This document shows positions 2,633 to 39,311 of a stretch of DNA of 39,311 nucleotides, piece by piece (position 1 is the stretch's first letter; every line of letters begins with the position of its first letter). Below the pieces are notes generated by a model. That model did no database searches. It saw only the letters and a program-made list of their open reading frames with translations, and was not told the origin of the DNA. The position numbers and the translations under genes are program-made. This DNA comes from a virus: the UHGV virus genome UHGV-0361196; one strand, 5' to 3'.

Positions 2633-2694
2633 TACGCGGACGTTCTGATGGGGGCTTCTGTTTCTTCATGCCTGTCATTTGTCTGTTACTTATA

Positions 2695-2870
2695 GAGAGG
2701 TAAATCATTTGATACTGCTGAAAAATCCGGGAGGAAAGTGGATCAAACGGGATTTGATGGGATAAAACAAACAGTTATGACGTAAAACAGTGTTATGCGC
2801 ACAACATGTGATTTGATACTACTGTCGCAAAGAAAGCTAAAAACGAAAAAATATTTGATACTACTGATTT
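2695..2870. repeat. left end (attL-like) with three putative transposase-binding repeats
   Basis: TTTGATAC at 2708..2715, 2812..2819 and 2854..2861 in the same orientation; L1 is about 100 bp from the adjacent L2/L3 pair, as in Mu attL; the reverse complement GTATCAAA recurs three times at the right end. Confidence 0.6.
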
Positions 2871-2895
2871 CTGCGATTTTAACGTTTTAAACAGG

Positions 2896-2932
2896 TTAAA
2901 AAACCAGCCGCGGGCTATTGGAATTAGCCCGC
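2896..2932 (-). terminator. candidate intrinsic terminator of repressor gene
   Basis: 8-bp stem GCGGGCTA / TAGCCCGC (2910..2917 / 2925..2932) with 7-nt loop; plus-strand A-run 2898..2903 gives a U-run after the hairpin on the minus strand; stem overlaps the stop codon. Confidence 0.4.
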
Positions 2933-3508
2933 CTTCGATTCTAAACTACTTGAGAGTTTATCGCTTTCAATTTCTGCCAAAATCTCTCTAACTCTTTCAT
3001 CCGATAAATGATCTAAAAGTAGAGCTGCTGCACGTTTTCGTCCTTCAAGTTGGATTAGTTCTTGATTCTCTGGTTCAAGTAACCGTGACAAGTACTTAGC
3101 TCCATTTAGCGCGAGGATTTTTGATAATCGCTCTGCCTCTGATGCTTCTAAAGCACTTAGTATAGCAAGAAGGCGCTGTAGCGTTATATCTAGGGGCAAT
3201 TGGACGTTTTCATCTATTTTAGGTGATATTGGTTCTATATCCTCCTTGCCAAAAACAAGCCAATCAATGCTCACCCCTTCTGCAAAAGCAATCTGACTAG
3301 CTACTTGTAGAGATGGTGTCGCATCTTTCTCAAAGTAGTTGTTAAGTGTTGAGAACGGTAGCCCCCACGCCTTCGCCACGGCAGTCTTGGAGCGCCCGCG
3401 CATTAGCATGGCTAGGCGCTCTTTAATGCTTTCTTTTTGAAACACAGGAAAAGAAAAATCACTTTCTTTTTCAGTGCTTCTTTCTTTTCTGTTAACCATA
3501 TGATTCAT
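2924..3508 (-). CDS. prophage repressor with XRE/lambda-cI-like HTH (Mu c functional equivalent)
   Basis: Only minus-strand gene in the prophage, divergent from ner as in Mu; HTH-like segment SKTAVAKAWGLPFSTLNNY followed by GVSIDWLVFG; start ambiguous (ATG 3508 or 3499 preferred over the GTG at 3559 that gives the 211-aa track ORF). Confidence 0.7.
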   Translation of the reverse strand: MNHMVNRKERSTEKESDFSFPVFQKESIKERLAMLMRGRSKTAVAKAWGLPFSTLNNYFEKDATPSLQVASQIAFAEGVSIDWLVFGKEDIEPISPKIDENVQLPLDITLQRLLAILSALEASEAERLSKILALNGAKYLSRLLEPENQELIQLEGRKRAAALLLDHLSDERVREILAEIESDKLSSSLESKAG

Positions 3509-3648
3509 AAAGAAATATCCTTTTGTAGATAAAAACCACCAAAGAAAGAGATAAAACACCTTTACTTTTCTTTTGTAGTGATCAAATATTTATCTGTAGA
3601 GATTATCCGGCGGTGTTATCCGCGCAGATAACTTTTAAGGATAAACGA
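3509..3648. promoter_or_regulatory. divergent early/repressor promoter-operator region
   Basis: Intergenic between divergent repressor and ner; repeated CTTTTGTAG-like motifs (about 3514..3530 and 3569..3585; variant TATCTGTAGAG about 3591..3601) and near-palindrome GTTATC-CGCGCA-GATAAC at 3615..3632; lies about 0.8-0.95 kb from the left end, where Mu has its operators and transposition enhancer. Confidence 0.5.
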
Positions 3649-3885
3649 ATGATGTCTATAAATGAAGTTGTTAAACAGGACTGGCACCCCGCGCATGTTG
3701 TCGCGGCGGTGCATGTAAAAGGTTTTACTTTACGCTCTCTGTCCATTGAAGCCGGTTTAAACCAGGATTCTTTAAAGAATGCCCTGTACCGCAAATGCCC
3801 AAAATATGAGCGCATTATTGCTGATGCTATTGGTGTTGCGCCGGAGGAGATCTGGCCCAGCCGTTACGCTCGTAAGGTGGCATAA
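3649..3885 (+). CDS. ner: Ner-like DNA-binding early regulator (Ner/Nlp family)
   Basis: C-terminal region ...ADAIGVAPEEIWPSRY resembles the Ner/Nlp family signature; RBS AGGA 9 nt upstream of ATG 3649; the track ORF from 3613 is probably a 5' over-extension. Confidence 0.8.
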   Translation: MMSINEVVKQDWHPAHVVAAVHVKGFTLRSLSIEAGLNQDSLKNALYRKCPKYERIIADAIGVAPEEIWPSRYARKVA

Positions 3886-3887
3886 AA

Positions 3888-5975
3888 ATGTTTGTATCAG
3901 TTAATGAGCTTGTAGGGTTACCAGGTATGCCGGGAACTGCGCAAGGGGTGCGGTATTCCATAAGGAAACTGGCCTCATCTGAGCATTTCAGGCGCAAACG
4001 TGCGGGTTCAAAAACCATTGAATACAGCATCGACTGCCTCCCTCCGGTTACACAACGGGCGTTACGTGAGCGACATGTAGCTCAACTGATGGCAAGCGCC
4101 CCGCGGGAGATAACTACCCAGCCTCCTGTAAAGCGTGAACGCAAACAAAATGTTGTACAGCCTGTTGAGGCATATCGCGGTTCGCCACAATTGGTAGAAG
4201 AGCGTCTGAATGCGCTTACGGAAAATCAACGTAAAGTTGCAGAAGCGCGCATTGCTCTTGTCTGTGAAGTTCTACGAATTAGCCAGGAGCCGGGATTCAG
4301 TTGTGCCAGCGCTATACGTTTTATTGTGTCGCGGTTAGCGCAGGGTAACCTGGAAGAACGCCTGGAATCTTTGGTCATTACTGCTAATGCCCGTAAAGGA
4401 AAAGAGCGAACTCTGAGCGCAATTACGCTCAAACGTTGGATAGCTGCGTTTAACAAAGCACAGAATGCCGCAGAACGACTGCTGTTACTGGCACCAGGAA
4501 AGCGCGACGAAATAAAACCGGAAGAAATTAGCTGGCTGCCTGAATTTCTGGCGCAGTATCGTCAGGCTAACGGCAGGCCTATGTCTGAAGCCTATGAGGA
4601 TTTTGTCGCTGATTGGCAGCGTCGCCATGCGGACGAACCATACATGCTGGAGGTGATGCCTTCCTATGATGTTGTCCGGTATGCCATGAAAAAACTGCCG
4701 GAAGTGGTGAAACAAAAAGGGCGCGTTACCGGCAGTGAATACCGTCAGCTTGAAGGATTCACCCGCCGCGACTGGACAGCTATGCCGGTGAATTATGTCT
4801 GGATTGGTGACGGTCACGGTATGAAGCTGAAATGTGCACATCCGATCCACGGGCGTCCATTCTCACCGGAAGTTACATTTGTGATCGACGGTGGAACCCG
4901 GTTTGTTGTTGGCTGGAGTCTTGACCTTGCCGAGAACGTGTTCGCCGTTGCCGGTGCGATACAGCACGGCATTCGCAACCACGGAAAACCGTTTCTGTAT
5001 TACTCGGATAATGGTTCTGGTGAAACGGCTGACATACTGGACAAAGAGGTCGTGGGTATTCTGCCCCGCCTGGGGATTAAACACCCTACCGGTATTGCCG
5101 GTAATCCACAGGGGCGCGGCATTATTGAACGCCTGAACCGGACACTGCCGATGCGTATAGCCAGGAGGTATCGCACCTATTTTGGCAAGGGTGCTGACCG
5201 GGAATCGTTGCGTGTACTTAACCGTGATCTGCGTTCAGCGTTTAACGCCATGCAACAGGACAAGCCTCTGAACGACCGCCAGAAAGCTGCAATGCGCGAG
5301 CTACCATCGTGGGCGGAGCTTATTGAGGCTATTCGTGAAGGCGTGGAATGGTACAACAACCGCCCGCATTCTGAGCTGCCAATGAAACCGAACGGGCGGC
5401 ATTACAGCCCGGCAGAGTTCAGAAAAAAACGCCTGGCAGAAGAAGACACCGAAATTGAGTGGCTGAGTGATCTTGAGCTGCGCGACATGTTCCGCCCGAT
5501 GGTGGAACGCCCGGTAAGACGGTGCGAAATTCAGTGGCTGAACAATATTTACTACGCGCCGGAGTTGCGTGACGAACACGGTCGCAAAGTACTTATCAGT
5601 TATGACATTCATGACGCCGAGCGAATTACGGTACGTCGCAAGGACGGCAGCTTTATCTGTGAGGCGATATGGAACGGCAATAAACGCACAGCCTTTGCTG
5701 TCAGTGCTGAATATCACAAACAACAGCAGCGTATTAAAGGAATGCGCAAACGTGCTGAGGAAAAAATTCGTGATGCTGAGGATGAAGGCATTCAGATACT
5801 GGAGCACAAACAGGCTGAACCCTGGCTGGATAATGTTTATCGCCCGGTTGGCAATACGGTAACCATCCAGCAACAGGATTATGAGGAGGATTACGACGAA
5901 GATTATGAACGCGATTTCAGGCTGGGTTTGCAGAAGCTTGTAGCCATACAGGAACAGGATGATCCGCTGGCCTGA
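3888..5975 (+). CDS. DDE transposase, MuA family (divergent from Mu A)
   Basis: 695 aa; N-terminal enhancer-binding-like domain (VNELVGLPGMPGT...KTIEY) and candidate DDE residues in IGDGHG, YYSDNGSG and GIIERLNRTL, aligned by eye to Mu A catalytic core; acidic C-terminus; RBS AAGGTGG. Confidence 0.9.
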   Translation: MFVSVNELVGLPGMPGTAQGVRYSIRKLASSEHFRRKRAGSKTIEYSIDCLPPVTQRALRERHVAQLMASAPREITTQPPVKRERKQNVVQPVEAYRGSPQLVEERLNALTENQRKVAEARIALVCEVLRISQEPGFSCASAIRFIVSRLAQGNLEERLESLVITANARKGKERTLSAITLKRWIAAFNKAQNAAERLLLLAPGKRDEIKPEEISWLPEFLAQYRQANGRPMSEAYEDFVADWQRRHADEPYMLEVMPSYDVVRYAMKKLPEVVKQKGRVTGSEYRQLEGFTRRDWTAMPVNYVWIGDGHGMKLKCAHPIHGRPFSPEVTFVIDGGTRFVVGWSLDLAENVFAVAGAIQHGIRNHGKPFLYYSDNGSGETADILDKEVVGILPRLGIKHPTGIAGNPQGRGIIERLNRTLPMRIARRYRTYFGKGADRESLRVLNRDLRSAFNAMQQDKPLNDRQKAAMRELPSWAELIEAIREGVEWYNNRPHSELPMKPNGRHYSPAEFRKKRLAEEDTEIEWLSDLELRDMFRPMVERPVRRCEIQWLNNIYYAPELRDEHGRKVLISYDIHDAERITVRRKDGSFICEAIWNGNKRTAFAVSAEYHKQQQRIKGMRKRAEEKIRDAEDEGIQILEHKQAEPWLDNVYRPVGNTVTIQQQDYEEDYDEDYERDFRLGLQKLVAIQEQDDPLA

Positions 5976-5982
5976 ATAAAAA

Positions 5983-6006
5983 AACAGTCCGCGGGAACGG
6001 ACTGTT
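5983..6006 (-). terminator. hairpin between A and B, terminator-like on the minus strand
   Basis: 9-bp stem AACAGTCCG / CGGACTGTT with 6-nt loop; a run of 7 A precedes it on the plus strand (U-run after the hairpin on the minus strand); no T-run after it on the plus strand. Confidence 0.35.
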
Positions 6007-6048
6007 AAACGAAGGAAACAAAGCTGATTTGAATAAACGGAGAATAAT

Positions 6049-6981
6049 ATGACCGATATTAATGATGTTTTCAACACGATTAACACACTTATTACTGACG
6101 GCGTAAAAACACAAAGCGCTATTGCTAAAGAAGCGGGGGTGTCGGAGGCCACTCTTTCTGAACTTCGCAAAGGCCGTTACAAAGGTGATACCGAAGGGAT
6201 GCATGACAAATTACTGATGTGGCATCAGAGCTGGCAAAAAAGTCTGGAGTTACCTGGCGCACCACAACTTGTGGAAACACAAACCCTCCGTGATTTGCGC
6301 GAGCTGTTTCAGACCGTGCGTGTTATGGGCTGTATCAGCGTTCTGGTTGGTGTGCCGGGTGTTGGTAAAACCGTTGCGGCCCGTGAATACAGTAACCGTG
6401 TATCTAATACCTGGATGGTGACCCTTTCCCCTGCACACTCAACAGTGACTGAGTGTCTGCTGGAGCTGGCAGACGCGCTGGGAATTGATAATCCGCAAAG
6501 AAATAAAGGCGCATTGACCCGCGCCATTCGCAAAAAACTGAATGGCACACGCGGTCTGGTTATTGTGGATGAAGCTGACCACCTGAGCATGGACGGGCTG
6601 GAGCAGTTACGCGCCATTCAGGATGCAACCGGCGTCGGGATGGTATTGATTGGCAACCCACACCAGTTAGCCAAAGCCACACACCGGGGAACAGATGACC
6701 TTGCACGTTTGTTCAGTCGTTTCGCCAGAACAAAGCAACTACGTAAAGCCAAAAAGGCTGACGTGGTGGCAATTGCGAAAGCCTGGGGCATTGAGGGCGA
6801 AGATGAATTATCACTCATGCAGAGCATCGCGGAAAAACCAGGTGCATTACGTGTATTAACTCATACGCTGAATCAGGCGTGGCTGGCTGCCAGCGGGAAA
6901 GGCGTTCCTCTATCCAAAGGCTACATTAAAGCAGCTTTTAAAGAGGTTTACAGCAACCCGAAATTACTGAACTGGTGGTAA
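6049..6981 (+). CDS. MuB-like AAA+ ATPase transposition target-capture protein
   Basis: 310 aa; Walker A GVPGVGKT and Walker B VIVDEADH; N-terminal HTH-like region; directly after transposase gene as in Mu; RBS GGAGA. Confidence 0.9.
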   Translation: MTDINDVFNTINTLITDGVKTQSAIAKEAGVSEATLSELRKGRYKGDTEGMHDKLLMWHQSWQKSLELPGAPQLVETQTLRDLRELFQTVRVMGCISVLVGVPGVGKTVAAREYSNRVSNTWMVTLSPAHSTVTECLLELADALGIDNPQRNKGALTRAIRKKLNGTRGLVIVDEADHLSMDGLEQLRAIQDATGVGMVLIGNPHQLAKATHRGTDDLARLFSRFARTKQLRKAKKADVVAIAKAWGIEGEDELSLMQSIAEKPGALRVLTHTLNQAWLAASGKGVPLSKGYIKAAFKEVYSNPKLLNWW

Positions 6982-6992
6982 GGGGATAAATA

Positions 6993-13282: not shown

Positions 13283-13705
13283 ATGCAGCATGATTTATTT
13301 GAACACGATCCGGCAATTCGCCAGTTAATCGGACATATTGATAACATCCCGGCCCCGGAACTGGAATCACGCTGGCCCCGTTCGGTGGTTGATCTGATTG
13401 ATGTTCTGGAAAACGAACTGAAACGCCAGAACGTCAGCAATCCCCGTGAGCTTGCCCGTAAACAGGCCGTTGCCCTGTCCTGTTTTCTGGGCGGACGGCA
13501 GTTTTACATCCCCTGCGGCGATACGATCCTGACCGCGTTACGTGACGATTTGCTTTACTGCCAGTTTAATGGTCGTAACATGGAAGAACTGCGTCGCCAG
13601 TACCGCCTGTCCCAGCCGCAGATCTACCAGATTATTGCCCGCCAGAGAAAGCTGCATACACGACGTCATCAGCCTGATCTGTTCTCACCTGAAAGCCCAA
13701 AATAA
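13283..13705 (+). CDS. C: C, late-gene transcription activator (Mor/C family)
   Basis: 140 aa, paralogous to Mor (...NGRNMEELRRQYRLSQPQIYQIIARQRK); near-identical to Mu C as recalled; RBS GGGGGA. Confidence 0.9.
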   Translation: MQHDLFEHDPAIRQLIGHIDNIPAPELESRWPRSVVDLIDVLENELKRQNVSNPRELARKQAVALSCFLGGRQFYIPCGDTILTALRDDLLYCQFNGRNMEELRRQYRLSQPQIYQIIARQRKLHTRRHQPDLFSPESPK

Positions 13706-16218: not shown

Positions 16219-17874
16219 ATGAACACCAGAGAAAACAACCTTAAAGCCCTTCATGCCCCCCGAAAAATCAACCTGCGTGAGGAAGCCGAACTGCTCGGCG
16301 TGAATATCGTGACCGATATCGGGGAAGCACAGCCCCGCAATGAACCGGTTTTTCTGGGCTATCAGCGCTGCTGGTTTGAGGATGAAAGCCAGATTTGCAT
16401 CGCTGAAAAATCCCGTCGTACCGGTCTGACATGGGCCGAAGCGGGCCGCAATGTCATGACGGCAGCAAAGCCGCGCCGCCGTGGCGGTCGCAACGTCTTT
16501 TATGTGGGTTCCCGTCAGGAAATGGCGCTGGAATATATCGCCGCCTGTGCCCTGTTTGCCCGCGCCTTTAACCAACTGGCAAAGGCTGATGTCTGGGAGC
16601 AGACCTTCTGGGACAGCGACAAAAAAGAAGAAATCCTCACTTATATGATCCGTTTCCCTAACAGCGGATTTAAGGTGCAGGCGCTGTCAAGCCGTCCGTC
16701 TAACCTGCGTGGTTTGCAGGGGGACGTGGTGATTGATGAGGCGGCATTTCATGAAGCCCTGGACGAACTCCTGAAAGCGGCCTTTGCTCTCACCATGTGG
16801 GGTGCCCGCGTGCGGATCATATCGACACATAACGGCGTCGATAACCTGTTTAACCAGTACATTCAGGATGCGCGCGAGGGGCGCAAGGATTACAGCGTTC
16901 ACCGCATCACGCTGGATGATGCCATCGCTGACGGGTTGTACCGACGTATCTGTTACGTCACGAATCAGCCGTGGTCGCCGGAAGCGGAAAAAGCCTGGCG
17001 TGATGGCCTGTACCGGAATGCGCCGAATAAAGAGAGTGCCGACGAGGAATACGGCTGCATTCCTAAAAAATCCGGGGGCGCTTATCTGTCACGCGTGCTG
17101 ATTGAAGCCGCCATGACGCCAGTGCGGGATATCCCGATTCTGCGTTTTGAAGCCCCGGACGATTTTGAATCGCTGACACCACAAATGCGCCACGGCATCG
17201 TTCAGGACTGGTGTGAACAGGAGCTGCTCCCGTTGCTCGATGCGCTGTCGCCGCTCAATAAACACGTACTGGGCGAAGACTTTGCACGCCGTGGCGACCT
17301 GACGGTGTTTGTGCCGCTTGCCATCACTCCTGACTTACGCAAACGCGAATGTTTCCGCGTGGAGCTGCGTAATGTGACCTATGACCAGCAGCGACAAATC
17401 CTTTTATTCATTCTGTCCCGTTTGCCCCGTTTTACCGGCGCTGCATTTGATGCCACCGGTAACGGCGGTTATCTGGCAGAAGCCGCCCGTCTGATTTATG
17501 GCCCGGAGATGATCGACTGTGTGAATCTGACCGCATCCTGGTATCAGGAGTGGATGCCCAAACTGAAAGGCGAGTTTGAAGCGCAGAACATCACGATTGC
17601 CCGGCACCAGACCACACTTGATGACCTGCTCCACATCAAGGTGGACAAAGGTATTCCGCAGATTGATAAGGGGCGCACAAAAGACGAAGGCGGTAAAGGC
17701 CGACGACATGGCGACTTTGCCGTGGCGCTCTGTATGGCTGTCAGGGCGTCTTATATGAATGGTTTTGTTATCGACGAGGACAGCATACAGGCGCTGCCAC
17801 CACGCCACCGTGGTGATGGTGTTGATAACGATGATTTTGATGATTATCACCAGTTTGAACGAGGGGGCTGGTAA
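16219..17874 (+). CDS. terminase large subunit
   Basis: About 551 aa from ATG 16219 (GAGGG upstream); ATPase and nuclease-like acidic motifs (VVIDEAAFHE, DFAVALCMA); the track ORF from 16027 is a 5' over-extension overlapping the upstream gene. Confidence 0.9.
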   Translation: MNTRENNLKALHAPRKINLREEAELLGVNIVTDIGEAQPRNEPVFLGYQRCWFEDESQICIAEKSRRTGLTWAEAGRNVMTAAKPRRRGGRNVFYVGSRQEMALEYIAACALFARAFNQLAKADVWEQTFWDSDKKEEILTYMIRFPNSGFKVQALSSRPSNLRGLQGDVVIDEAAFHEALDELLKAAFALTMWGARVRIISTHNGVDNLFNQYIQDAREGRKDYSVHRITLDDAIADGLYRRICYVTNQPWSPEAEKAWRDGLYRNAPNKESADEEYGCIPKKSGGAYLSRVLIEAAMTPVRDIPILRFEAPDDFESLTPQMRHGIVQDWCEQELLPLLDALSPLNKHVLGEDFARRGDLTVFVPLAITPDLRKRECFRVELRNVTYDQQRQILLFILSRLPRFTGAAFDATGNGGYLAEAARLIYGPEMIDCVNLTASWYQEWMPKLKGEFEAQNITIARHQTTLDDLLHIKVDKGIPQIDKGRTKDEGGKGRRHGDFAVALCMAVRASYMNGFVIDEDSIQALPPRHRGDGVDNDDFDDYHQFERGGW

Positions 17875-19412
17875 TGGGCCGTATTCTGGATATTTCCGGG
17901 CAGCCGTTTGATTTTGACGATGAAATGCAGACCCGCAGCGATGAGCTGGCAATGGTCATGAAGCGTACGCAGGAGCATCCTTCCAGTGGTGTGACGCCGA
18001 ACCGGGCCGCGCAGATGCTGCGTGATGCCGAACGCGGTGATCTGACAGCACAGGCTGACCTGGCCTTTGATATGGAAGAAAAGGACACCCACCTTTTTTC
18101 CGAACTGAGCAAACGCCGCCTTGCCATTCAGGCGCTGGAATGGCGCATCGCTCCGGCACGTGATGCCAGCGCACAGGAGAAAAAAGACGCTGACATGCTG
18201 AATGAATATCTGCATGATGCGGCGTGGTTTGAAGATGCCCTGTTTGATGCCGGTGATGCCATTCTCAAGGGCTATTCCATGCAGGAGATTGAATGGGGCT
18301 GGCTGGGGAAAATGCGCGTGCCGGTGGCGCTGCATCATCGCGATCCGGCGCTATTCTGCGCGAACCCCGACAATCTGAACGAATTACGCCTGCGTGATGC
18401 GTCTTATCACGGGCTGGAGCTGCAACCGTTCGGCTGGTTTATGCACCGGGCCAAATCCCGCACCGGGTATGTCGGCACCAATGGCCTTGTGCGCACGCTT
18501 ATCTGGCCTTTTATTTTTAAAAACTATTCCGTGCGTGATTTTGCAGAGTTTCTGGAAATTTACGGACTCCCCATGCGCGTCGGTAAATATCCGACCGGCT
18601 CAACGAACCGCGAGAAAGCCACGCTGATGCAGGCCGTGATGGATATCGGGCGACGTGCCGGTGGCATTATTCCGATGGGGATGACGCTGGATTTTCAGAG
18701 CGCCGCAGATGGTCAGTCAGACCCTTTTATGGCGATGATTGGCTGGGCAGAAAAAGCGATTTCAAAAGCTATTCTGGGCGGCACCCTGACCACAGAGGCT
18801 GGCGATAAAGGCGCGCGGTCGCTAGGTGAAGTGCATGATGAGGTTCGCCGGGAAATCCGTAACGCGGATGTGGGCCAGCTTGCCCGCAGTATTAACCGTG
18901 ATCTGATTTATCCCCTGCTGGCACTGAACAGTGGCAGCACCATTGATATTAACCGCCTGCCGGGCATTGTATTTGATACCAGTGAAGCGGGTGATATTAC
19001 GGCACTGTCTGACGCCATTCCGAAACTGGCGGCGGGAATGCGTATTCCGGTCTCATGGATACAGGAAAAACTCCATATTCCACAGCCGGTCGGTGATGAA
19101 GCCGTGTTTACTGCTCAACCGGTCGTCATGGATAACGGTCCGCAGAAAGAAGCCGCATTATCCGCTGATGATATCCCGCAGGAGGATGATATCGACCGGA
19201 TGGGCGTTTCACCGGAAGACTGGCAGCGTTCGGTTGATCCCCTGCTGAAACCCGTCATTTTTTCTGTGCTGAAAGATGGCCCGGAAGCCGCCATGAACAA
19301 AGCCGCTTCATTATATCCGCAGATGGATGATGCAGAACTTATCGACATGCTGACCCGTGCCATTTTTGTTGCCGATATATGGGGGCGTCTGGATGCCGCA
19401 GCAGACCATTGA
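17874..19412 (+). CDS. H: portal protein (Mu gp29 family)
   Basis: 512 aa; start overlaps terminase stop (TAATG); directly after the large terminase. Confidence 0.9.
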   Translation: MGRILDISGQPFDFDDEMQTRSDELAMVMKRTQEHPSSGVTPNRAAQMLRDAERGDLTAQADLAFDMEEKDTHLFSELSKRRLAIQALEWRIAPARDASAQEKKDADMLNEYLHDAAWFEDALFDAGDAILKGYSMQEIEWGWLGKMRVPVALHHRDPALFCANPDNLNELRLRDASYHGLELQPFGWFMHRAKSRTGYVGTNGLVRTLIWPFIFKNYSVRDFAEFLEIYGLPMRVGKYPTGSTNREKATLMQAVMDIGRRAGGIIPMGMTLDFQSAADGQSDPFMAMIGWAEKAISKAILGGTLTTEAGDKGARSLGEVHDEVRREIRNADVGQLARSINRDLIYPLLALNSGSTIDINRLPGIVFDTSEAGDITALSDAIPKLAAGMRIPVSWIQEKLHIPQPVGDEAVFTAQPVVMDNGPQKEAALSADDIPQEDDIDRMGVSPEDWQRSVDPLLKPVIFSVLKDGPEAAMNKAASLYPQMDDAELIDMLTRAIFVADIWGRLDAAADH

Positions 19413-20712
19413 TCTGGCGTATGCCGCACGCCTCCCGCCAAAGGAGGCTGTCGCGTATTTCCGCGCCAAAGGCTACAACATCACCTGGAACTGGTACGAA
19501 CAACTGGCAGACGCGCACGCCCGCGCCTTTACCGTTGCCAAAGCCACCCGGATGGATGTCCTGACCACAATCCGTGAGGAAGTGGAGCGGGCTGTCAGTG
19601 AAGGCATCACCCGTGAGGAATTTACCCGCACACTGGCCCCCCGGTTGCAAAAACTCGGATGGTGGGGAAAACAAATCATCGTGGATGCAGACGGAAACGC
19701 AAAGGTAATCGAGCTGGGCAGTCCGCGTCGTCTGGCAACCATTTATAACGTCAATACCCGTACAGCGTATGGGGCAGGACGTTATGCGCAGATGATGAAT
19801 ACCGCCGATTTGTACCCGTACTGGCAGTACGTTGCCGTTATGGATGGCAGAACACGCCCGGAACATGCGCGGCTGCACAATATGGTTTTCCGGTATGATG
19901 ACATTTTCTGGCAGACGCATTACCCGCCCAATGGCTGGAACTGCCGCTGTCGCGTCCGGGCGGTGTCTGCGGCCCGCATGAAAGAACTGGGGCTACAGAT
20001 CAGTTATGGTGCGTCATTCATGAATACCCGCGAAGTGGATGCCGGTACGGATGAAAGCACCGGAGAGATTTTCCGCACATCGTCAACCACGTTTGACAAC
20101 GGTCGGGTAAAAATGACGCCGGATGTGGGCTGGTCATATAACCCCGGTTCGGCGGCATTTGGTACGGATCAGGCACTGATTCGAAAACTGGTGGAAATTC
20201 GCGACGCGCAGTTGCGTGGGCAGGTTGTTCAGACGCTGAATAACAGCCGGGAGCGTCAGCTTGCTTTTTCCCTCTGGCTTAAACGTCTGGCAGGATCACG
20301 TCAGACCGGTCATGAAATCCGGGCACTGGGTTTTATGACGGAATCGGTAGCTGAAGCCGTACATCAGCGCACCGGGAATATGCCAGCCCGTCTGCTTGTG
20401 ATGAACGGGAAAAGTCTGGCGACCACTGCTGATGTCGCCCTGAAACCGGAGGATTTACAGCATCTGCCGTCGCTGATGGCAAAACCACAGGCAGTATTGT
20501 GGGACAGGGAGAACCACCAGTTGCTGTATGTTGTGGCAACCCGTGACGGCATGGCCCGGATTGTGGTCAGAACATCACAGACAGTCGGCAGGCAGAATGA
20601 CCGTGCGGATGTGCTGGTCAGTATCAGCCGCGTATCTGCACAGTCGCTTGAAACCGCGATTGCTGACGGGATGATTGACGTACTGGAGGGACATGTGGAG
20701 GTGAATAAGTGA
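19393..20712 (+). CDS. F: head morphogenesis protein (Mu F family)
   Basis: About 439 aa from ATG 19393; follows the portal gene. Confidence 0.85.
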   Translation: MPQQTIDLAYAARLPPKEAVAYFRAKGYNITWNWYEQLADAHARAFTVAKATRMDVLTTIREEVERAVSEGITREEFTRTLAPRLQKLGWWGKQIIVDADGNAKVIELGSPRRLATIYNVNTRTAYGAGRYAQMMNTADLYPYWQYVAVMDGRTRPEHARLHNMVFRYDDIFWQTHYPPNGWNCRCRVRAVSAARMKELGLQISYGASFMNTREVDAGTDESTGEIFRTSSTTFDNGRVKMTPDVGWSYNPGSAAFGTDQALIRKLVEIRDAQLRGQVVQTLNNSRERQLAFSLWLKRLAGSRQTGHEIRALGFMTESVAEAVHQRTGNMPARLLVMNGKSLATTADVALKPEDLQHLPSLMAKPQAVLWDRENHQLLYVVATRDGMARIVVRTSQTVGRQNDRADVLVSISRVSAQSLETAIADGMIDVLEGHVEVNK

Positions 20713-21179
20713 GTCTTGATATGAACGTTGCCGTGGATGTGCGACGTATTCAGCTTGCACTGGATGAACTGGGAACCGTTACACGTGACCGCGCCATTCC
20801 CCGTGTGATGGCTGCGGCGCTGCTGTCATCCACGGAACAGGCATTTGAACGGCAGGCAGACCCGGATACAGGGAAAGGCTGGGAAGCGTGGAGCGATTCG
20901 TGGCAGGCATGGCGTCAGGATCATGGTTTTGTTCCGGGCAGTATCCTTACCCTGCATGGCGATCTGGCACGCAGCATTACCACCGATTATGGACAGGATT
21001 ATGCCCTGATTGGTTCGCCAAAAATTTATGCTGCCATTCATCAGTGGGGCGGTACACCCGATATGGCACCCCGCCCGGCAGGCGTTCCTGCGCGTCCTTA
21101 TATGGGGCTGGATAAGACCGGGGAACAGGAAATTTTTGATGCCATCAGAAAACGCGTCAGCGCCGCTCTGAGGCAATAA
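20709..21179 (+). CDS. G: virion morphogenesis protein (Mu G-like)
   Basis: 156 aa; GTGA overlap with upstream gene. Confidence 0.75.
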   Translation: MSLDMNVAVDVRRIQLALDELGTVTRDRAIPRVMAAALLSSTEQAFERQADPDTGKGWEAWSDSWQAWRQDHGFVPGSILTLHGDLARSITTDYGQDYALIGSPKIYAAIHQWGGTPDMAPRPAGVPARPYMGLDKTGEQEIFDAIRKRVSAALRQ

Positions 21180-21375
21180 ACTGAATCAGACATGAAATCA
21201 GCCGCACAGATTTTTTAAAACGCGCCACGGGATTTTTAAACCGGTATTTAACGGTGTATGAATCCCGTTTTATCTTCCTTCCACTTTCTTTCTCCAGTAC
21301 TCAAATAGCATAACCCCAGATTTTCCCGCACCTCCCGCAAACTGACTGCTCACAAACCATGATGAGCAGCAGGAC
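21180..21375. other. G-I intergenic region at the genome centre: candidate strong gyrase site and late promoter
   Basis: 196-bp non-coding gap about 18.5 kb from the left end of a 36.6-kb element, the position of the Mu central gyrase site; contains CCCGCACCT (21325..21333), also found upstream of lys. Confidence 0.35.
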
Positions 21376-22461
21376 ATGAAAAAACACGCGATTGGCATTG
21401 CCGCACTGAATGCGCTGTCCATTGACGATGACGGCTGGTGCCAGTTATTGCCTGCCGGTCATTTCAGTGCCCGTGATGGTCGTCCGTTTGATGTGACAGG
21501 CGGTCAGGGGTGGTTCATCGACGGTGAGATTGCCGGGCGTCTGATTGAAGGCGTTCGCGCGCTCAACCAGGACGTGCTGATTGATTACGAGCATAACCAG
21601 CTACGTAAGGACAAAGGATTACCCCCGGAACAACTCGTCGCGGCTGGCTGGTTTAACGCCGATGAAATGCAGTGGCGTGAAGGTGAAGGGTTATTTATCC
21701 ACCCACGCTGGACGGCGGCGGCCCAGCAGCGCATCGATGACGGCGAATTTGGTTATCTCTCTGCGGTTTTTCCGTATGACACCGCCACCGGTGCGGTGCT
21801 GCAAATCCGCCTTGCTGCGCTGACCAATGACCCCGGTGCCACCGGCATGAAAAAGCTGACCGCACTGGCGGCAGACCTTCCCGACATCCTTCAACAGGAG
21901 AACAAACCCATGAATGAAACGCTGCGCAAGCTGCTTGCGCGTCTTGGGGTGACGGTCCCCGAAAATGCAGACATCACCGATGAACAGGCCAGCGCGGCCC
22001 TGAGTGCGCTTGATGCGCTCGAAACAGATGCCGGAAAAGTGGCGTCGTTATCCGCCGAACTGGAAAAGGCACAGAAAGCCGCCGTTGACCTGACGAAATA
22101 CGTCCCGGTGGAAAGCTACAACGCCCTGCGTGATGAACTGGCACAGGCGACTGCACTAAGCGCCACAGCCAGCCTGAGCGCCGTTCTGGACAAGGCGGAA
22201 CAGGAAGGCCGCATTTTCAAAAGCGAACGTGCCTATCTGGAACAGCTTGGCGGTCAGATTGGCGTGGCGGCACTGTCGGCACAGCTTGAGAAAAAACAGC
22301 CCATCGCTGCGTTATCTGCCATGCAGACCACCACAGCGAAAATCCCGTCGCAGGAAAAAACGGCTGTGGCGGTGCTGTCTGCTGATGAACAGGCAGCAGT
22401 GAAGGCGCTCGGCATTACAGAGGCTGAGTATCTGAAAATGAAACAGGAACAAGAAAAATGA
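21376..22461 (+). CDS. I: head protease / scaffold protein (Mu I-like)
   Basis: 361 aa; N-terminal protease-like domain and C-terminal Ala/Glu/Lys-rich helical scaffold-like region. Confidence 0.85.
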   Translation: MKKHAIGIAALNALSIDDDGWCQLLPAGHFSARDGRPFDVTGGQGWFIDGEIAGRLIEGVRALNQDVLIDYEHNQLRKDKGLPPEQLVAAGWFNADEMQWREGEGLFIHPRWTAAAQQRIDDGEFGYLSAVFPYDTATGAVLQIRLAALTNDPGATGMKKLTALAADLPDILQQENKPMNETLRKLLARLGVTVPENADITDEQASAALSALDALETDAGKVASLSAELEKAQKAAVDLTKYVPVESYNALRDELAQATALSATASLSAVLDKAEQEGRIFKSERAYLEQLGGQIGVAALSAQLEKKQPIAALSAMQTTTAKIPSQEKTAVAVLSADEQAAVKALGITEAEYLKMKQEQEK

Positions 22462-39190: not shown

Positions 39191-39268
39191 TATCAAATAA
39201 TTTTTCGTTGTGCCGTTTTGGGTGGTATCAAAAAAAATTCAAAACGGTATCAAATGATTTTGCGCGCT
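39186..39268. repeat. right end (attR-like) with three putative transposase-binding repeats
   Basis: GTATCAAA at 39190..39197, 39225..39232 and 39247..39254, the reverse complement of the left-end TTTGATAC motif; the outermost 14-mer AAATCATTTGATAC is shared by both ends in inverted orientation. Confidence 0.6.
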
Positions 39269-39278
39269 TTATACTGAT

Positions 39279-39311
39279 GTTGTTGTTCCTGCTACTGCTA
39301 CTGCTACTGCT
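39279..39311. repeat. short microsatellite in right flank
   Basis: (GTT)3 at 39279..39287 followed by (GCTACT)3 at 39291..39308, running to the window edge. Confidence 0.5.

Follow-up and report, generated by a model that had tools for sequence, protein, structure and literature searches.

The DNA analysed here (UHGV virus genome UHGV-0361196, one strand of 39,311 nucleotides, referred to below as the window) contains a Mu-type prophage, in which a 196-bp gap separates the late genes G and I. [quoted passage not shown] No natural strong gyrase site has been studied more thoroughly than the Mu SGS, which is the standard substrate in mechanistic and structural work on gyrase; its recurrence in a prophage of the Mu family is an ordinary feature, which merely confirms that the annotation is correct. 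The comparisons presented below indicate that the gap is very probably the already known strong gyrase site of Mu and D108 together with a terminator-like hairpin and the late promoter P_I.

Extent, position and orthology of the G–I gap

The open reading frame coordinates placed the gap at 21180-21375, exactly 196 bp. It is preceded by gene G (20709-21179, + strand, 156 aa, TAA stop codon at 21177-21179), the last gene of the lys late transcript, and followed by gene I, which encodes the head protease/scaffold (21376-22461, + strand, 361 aa, ATG at 21376) and is the first gene of the P_I transcript. The two products showed 99.4 and 97.5% identity to Mu gpG and gpI, respectively, in tblastn comparisons. 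Inside the gap no + strand reading frame of at least 20 aa with an ATG, GTG or TTG start was present, and the reading frames overlapping it were short and confined to the - strand. In the PGAP annotation of the 99.8%-identical prophage of Escherichia coli S6, these 196 bp formed the largest intergenic gap of the late region between lys and the tail fibres, followed by gaps of 144 and 94 bp. Between the left end of the prophage and the start of the gap there are 18,489 bp; the predicted gyrase overhang (21196-21199, see below) is 18.5 kb away from this end and 18.07 kb from the opposite one, which corresponds to 50.6% of the total 36,581 bp. The original prediction had described a non-coding gap between G and I, about 18.5 kb from the left end and almost exactly at the midpoint of the element, and this description was confirmed in all its parts.

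Comparison of the gap with phage records gave 13 matches of 98-99.5% identity. In a three-way alignment 192 of the 196 positions (98.0%) were identical to Mu 17860-18055 and 195 (99.5%) to D108, so that the alignment with the Mu G–I intergenic region, proposed beforehand as a check, came out positive over the whole gap. The likeness to the Mu region extends to the flanking genes, the gap length of 196 bp, the central place in the element and the order of a terminator prediction followed by P_I. Judged from these features, the gap is the ortholog of the G–I region of Mu and D108. The window differs from D108 by a single base at 21324 within P_I, which is T in the window and in Mu but C in D108.

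The D108 record also annotates in this gap a doubtful reading frame, orf31.5, whereas the Mu records do not. According to this annotation (GQ357916, nucleotides 706-834 of the D108 segment compared) the gap would encode a small protein of 42 aa, corresponding to window 21185-21313. The annotated coding sequence begins with ATC (Ile), which is not a start codon, the gap offers no + strand frame of the kind sought above, and the 5' part of the region is hypervariable, with an indel in one of the close relatives. The lack of a start codon and the hypervariability led us to reject this candidate: that the gap encodes such a protein is hardly credible, and the D108 annotation is very likely an artefact.

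The probable gyrase site and its arms

Both GenBank records of Mu carry a misc_feature named 'gyrase cut site' at 17879/17880, equivalent to 21199/21200 of the window. The expectation that the gap coincides with the strong gyrase site of Mu was thereby borne out, the annotated site falling at the homologous position in both records. Cryo-EM of gyrase bound to a 217-bp fragment of the Mu SGS located the scissile bonds at A/A in one strand and at T/GATTT in the other (PMC11626157), and these positions are concordant with the annotation of the Mu records. Transfer of the Mu positions to the window would place the top-strand cut at 21195/21196 and the bottom-strand cut at 21199/21200, leaving a 4-nt 5' overhang, AATC, at 21196-21199. 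With the geometry of the 130-bp gyrase motif taken from PMC6379681 (positions -63 to +66, position 0 at 21196), the DNA bound by gyrase would be expected to span about 130 bp, 21133-21262, the left portion of which (21133-21179) falls within the 3' end of gene G. Gyrase binding had been assayed on a 133-bp Mu SGS fragment (supplement to PMC6379681); this fragment aligned with 21132-21264 at 129 of its 133 positions, which puts 21196-21199 at its centre. At 21201, just to the right of the overhang, the base is G in the window, as in the GenBank sequence of Mu, and C in the 133-bp fragment of the Topo-Seq paper (AGCC versus ACCC). Many laboratories have worked with a stronger mutant site, nuB103, as noted in a review.

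The differences from Mu are distributed unevenly around the cut. Three of them (21182, A>T; 21190, G>A; 21194, A>G) lie at -14, -6 and -2 from the top-strand cut, and the fourth, at 21281, lies at +85. D108 has the same three left-arm substitutions, so that position -2 is G in the window and in D108 and A in Mu. All the near-site differences are thus contained in the part of the left arm inside the gap (21180-21195), which is hypervariable, the remainder of this arm overlapping the 3' end of gene G. The overhang and the right arm (21200-21280), in contrast, are identical to Mu, the latter over 81 of 81 bp. The right arm contains phased T-tract/AA elements, namely TTTTTTAAAA at 21211-21220, TTTTTAAA at 21233-21240 and TTTAA at 21247-21251, with T-to-A junctions at +21, +42 and +54 from the cut, as well as a direct repeat, D1, whose copies CACAGATTTTTTAAAACG and CACGGGATTTTTAAACCG are spaced by 21 bp. 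According to later papers that cite the published dissection of the Mu SGS (J Bacteriol 2004 and 2006), the left arm is reported as dispensable and the right arm as essential, the latter showing an extended footprint and phased bending signals, wrapping one GyrA C-terminal domain and presenting the T-segment. This asymmetry matches the location of the differences between the window and Mu.

The same asymmetry was found among 20 close relatives (the window, the S6 prophage, Mu, D108 and 16 IMG/VR contigs) with 16 distinct sequences among them, a comparison which is descriptive in nature, the sequences being few and related. The 16 bp of the left arm between the G stop codon and the overhang contained seven variable sites, the 4 bp of the overhang none, and the 81 bp of the right arm two, compared with about five variable sites per 100 bp of flanking coding DNA. 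At 21194 the alleles A and G were each present in ten of the 20 sequences. The natural variation matches the published dissection, in that changes occur freely in the left arm but hardly at all in the overhang and right arm.

More distant Mu-like prophages (the E. coli SE11 type, an O157:H7 prophage, Citrobacter braakii and IMG/VR contigs), whose gpG is 84, 69 or 55-58% identical, all keep a G–I gap of 173-201 bp, the sequence of which has diverged for the most part. The T-tract/AA elements are found again in the lineages compared, their junctions lying 20-21, 11 and 10 bp apart, and of the 126 columns of the alignment of divergent gaps the 26 invariant ones correspond mostly to these phased elements. 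Of the divergent lineages, SE11 and L008 alone have a recognisable AATCA core. The O157:H7 gap holds TATTTAACGG, as does Mu. According to a review, only one heterologous SGS has been able to sustain the replication of Mu, that of the Mu-like prophage of E. coli O157:H7 Sakai, which is presumably the O157:H7 prophage compared here.

Features intrinsic to the sequence were also considered. Fourier analysis of the right arm gave an A/T periodicity of 10-11 bp between the 96th and the 99.9th percentile of windows of the same size. Periodicity is equally high elsewhere in the element and the right arm is not unique in this respect; by this measure the site would not have been identified from sequence alone. 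Matches to the published 133-bp gyrase consensus were also counted, both as letters and as G/C versus A/T. In this crude scan of the window the site was neither first nor near the top of the ranking, and its core matches the consensus poorly. The scan was judged uninformative rather than contrary, because the GC-rich consensus favours GC-rich coding DNA. Around the site the consensus score oscillates strongly with approximately the period of the helical repeat and peaks within a few bases of the register expected, the best single offset being 21197 and the in-register position 21196. Since the crude scan did not single the site out, the assignment rests on homology, and we infer the function as a gyrase site from the near-identity to the experimentally characterised site of Mu. 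The strong sites of pSC101 and pBR322 and the 130-bp Topo-Seq motif follow a like logic, with a central cleavage region and arms that wrap the GyrA C-terminal domains, and show in the arms a G/C–A/T periodicity of roughly 10.75 bp; the plasmid sites, however, have no sequence homology to the site in the window. The pSC101 and pBR322 sites have been reported to be unable to replace the Mu SGS for Mu replication.

Terminator-like hairpin and late promoter P_I

The right arm of the gyrase site is overlapped by a terminator-like hairpin with a U-rich tail (21227-21279, + strand). The hairpin itself, at 21227-21268, is formed by the stem ACGGGAUUU, which pairs with GAAUCCCGU and is followed by UUUUAUCUUCC; at the DNA level it corresponds to an imperfect inverted repeat, I1, of 20 nt (21227-21246 / 21249-21268) with 80% complementarity. 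The predicted RNA fold had an energy of -19.8 kcal/mol, compared with -11.7 ± 2.9 for shuffled sequences (z = -2.8), and the U-rich tail reads UUUUAUCUU. A TransTermHP terminator annotated in the Mu record AF083977 at 17908-17953 is equivalent to 21228-21273 of the window. A simple terminator scan of 20900-21700 did not call the hairpin, the stem of which is interrupted and the loop long; the miss is accounted for by a loop that exceeds 8 nt.

An inverted repeat of this kind, 80% complementary and more stable as RNA than its shuffled counterparts, might instead be bound by a dimeric protein or give rise to a structured non-coding RNA, and belong neither to a gyrase site nor to a terminator. 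The Rfam search of window 21000-21500 gave no match, and the data gathered suggest no binding protein. Moreover, divergent lineages each have at the same place a hairpin with a U-rich tail of their own and of other sequence, the position and the tail being kept as a terminator would keep them. The protein-site or RNA reading is therefore considered very unlikely. The occurrence of differing hairpins at the same place speaks for a conserved role in terminating the lys-to-G transcript, and the predicted terminator probably marks the end of this late transcript.

The original prediction had also located in the gap a candidate late promoter for gene I, and this was substantiated by the Mu annotation. 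Record AF083977 gives a Mu late promoter at 17977-18043, based on PMID 2522923, and the equivalent segment of the window, 21297-21363 (+ strand), is identical to it at 67 of 67 positions. The C-binding element lies at approximately 21299-21314, the conserved CATAAC-CCC box at 21309-21317 and the -10 hexamer CAAACT at 21338-21343, and a -35 hexamer is absent. This geometry agrees with the published description of the C-dependent late promoter, which has a 16-bp dyad centred at -43.5 and no -35 hexamer (PMC2582627). The three other late promoters, Plys, PP and Pmom, are also present in the window and are 64-67/67 identical to their Mu counterparts; the four are in register, with a common CATAAY-CC box and the -10 hexamer at the same offset. 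The gene for the activator C, at 13283-13702, is 99.3% identical to Mu C. By these similarities P_I is the Mu C-dependent late promoter, predicted to drive gene I and the genes downstream of it, and its transcription start would lie near 21350. No promoter was found in 20900-21700 by a scan with the sigma-70 consensus, as expected for an activator-dependent promoter.

The distant gaps mentioned above resemble that of the window in having a hairpin with a U-rich tail and, ahead of gene I, a box that reads CATAAC-CC or CGCAAACCC. The succession of gyrase arm, terminator and late promoter thus appears to be conserved as an architecture and not as a sequence. The box upstream of I varies by lineage, the forms observed being CATAAC-CCC, CATAAACCC and CGCAAACCC.

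A second hairpin was noticed at 21342-21372 (CUGCUCA / UGAGCAG; -14.7 kcal/mol, z = -5.3), just upstream of the start of gene I and ending at the ribosome-binding region. Both arms are kept in the SE11-type prophage. With the P_I start predicted near 21350, the 5' arm of this hairpin would occur only in transcripts reading through from upstream.

The probable gyrase site in a mosaic prophage

The ends of the Mu-type prophage were mapped by comparison of the window with the empty site as found in two plasmids, one of them pAPEC-O2-R, and with two chromosomal copies of the prophage. The prophage was found to occupy 2691-39271, 36,581 bp, the left end being TATAGAGAGG... and the right end ...GCGCGCTTTA. 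From about 6988 on it matches Mu, D108, SfMu and several Mu-like phages of Yersinia at about 96-98%. The structure is that of a mosaic, with late genes 97-99% identical to those of Mu and an early region, 2691-6988, which is not Mu-like. The latter includes the transposase gene at approximately 3888-5975 and a B homolog at approximately 6055-6948; the match to MuA was limited to 61 residues with 36% identity, MuB was 44% and Ner 46% identical, and nucleotide matches among phage records were obtained only with Yersinia phages vB_YpM_5 and vB_YpM_6. The element in the window thus differs from Mu in its early region and transposase, in its termini and in target duplications of 4 bp.

If the published work on Mu can be applied to this element, host DNA gyrase would bind the site and cut at AATC 21196-21199, and the right arm (21200 to about 21280), by means of its phased A/T tracts, would be wrapped around one GyrA C-terminal domain and would present the T-segment. 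Wrapping of the arm would lead to fast and processive supercoiling, and a supercoiled plectonemic loop would grow with the SGS at its apex until the prophage ends, about 18 kb away in each direction, meet at its base. The ends so paired would be available for synapsis by the transposase and assembly of the transpososome, and an element without the site would be expected to show a strong delay of replicative transposition after induction. In Mu, deletion of the SGS delays replication by about 100 min and lowers Cre-loxP recombination across the prophage 30-fold, and the central position of the SGS is optimal for both replication and synapsis of the ends. For its effect on the prophage domain and on end pairing in Mu, the SGS depended in addition on the L end and MuB, and it had no effect in non-Mu DNA.

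This last observation bears directly on the mosaic. Hairpin and P_I alone would account for a gap of about 150 bp, and the gap could accordingly be regarded as nothing but an operon junction, formed by the lys terminator and P_I, in which the gyrase site is vestigial, inherited with the Mu late region and useless with a different transposase and different ends. The early region that is not Mu-like and the Mu-specific partners required for the SGS effect in Mu speak for such a reading. On the other hand, the right arm is visibly more conserved than the neighbouring left arm in close relatives, and the phased-tract architecture survives where the rest of the gap has diverged. Furthermore, the site is still central in the mosaic element, and near-identical mosaic prophages were found elsewhere at varied chromosomal sites (patD, glpT, ydcO, rlmB and sslE), from which it follows that the element is mobile now or was so recently. 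Taken together, a vestigial site in a mere junction is regarded as improbable.

For the preferred reading, that of a gyrase site retained together with terminator and promoter, cooperation of the SGS with the non-Mu module is an assumption, as MuA and MuB have diverged here and the SGS effect in Mu needs Mu-specific partners. The assumption is a reasonable one in view of the site still being central and of the near-identical mosaic prophages at several chromosomal positions. It is tempting to speculate that the Mu SGS is a portable module which also works with a non-Mu transposition system, a proposal for which the arguments on either side appear to us about evenly balanced. Should the site be functional here, gyrase-driven synapsis of the ends would offer long transposable prophages a generally applicable solution, without dependence on the Mu-specific partners, the L end and MuB. 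The retention of the SGS at the centre of a mosaic with another module makes this independence testable.

With regard to the surroundings of the prophage, 1-2690 and 39272-39311 are flanks of plasmid type, with a backbone common to thousands of conjugative E. coli plasmids; the left flank contains a DUF3560 gene and a methyltransferase gene. The empty-site plasmid pAPEC-O2-R was typed IncFIA/IncFII. A search of plasmid and E. coli collections for the junction between prophage and plasmid yielded no record containing it. The termini of the prophage (window 2687-2695 and 39267-39276) read 5'-TATAGAG...CTTTA-3', that is TA...TA, compared with TG...CA in Mu. Three independent insertions, those in the window, in E. 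coli S6 and in E. coli 1290, were compared and showed exact flanking direct repeats of 4 bp, TACT, TTAA and GTGA, Mu typically giving 5 bp; that one of the three is located in an IncF-type plasmid backbone forms part of the context in which a portable module would be viewed. For the insertion in the window the empty site, GTTACTGATG, excludes a duplication of 5 bp, barring a point mutation.
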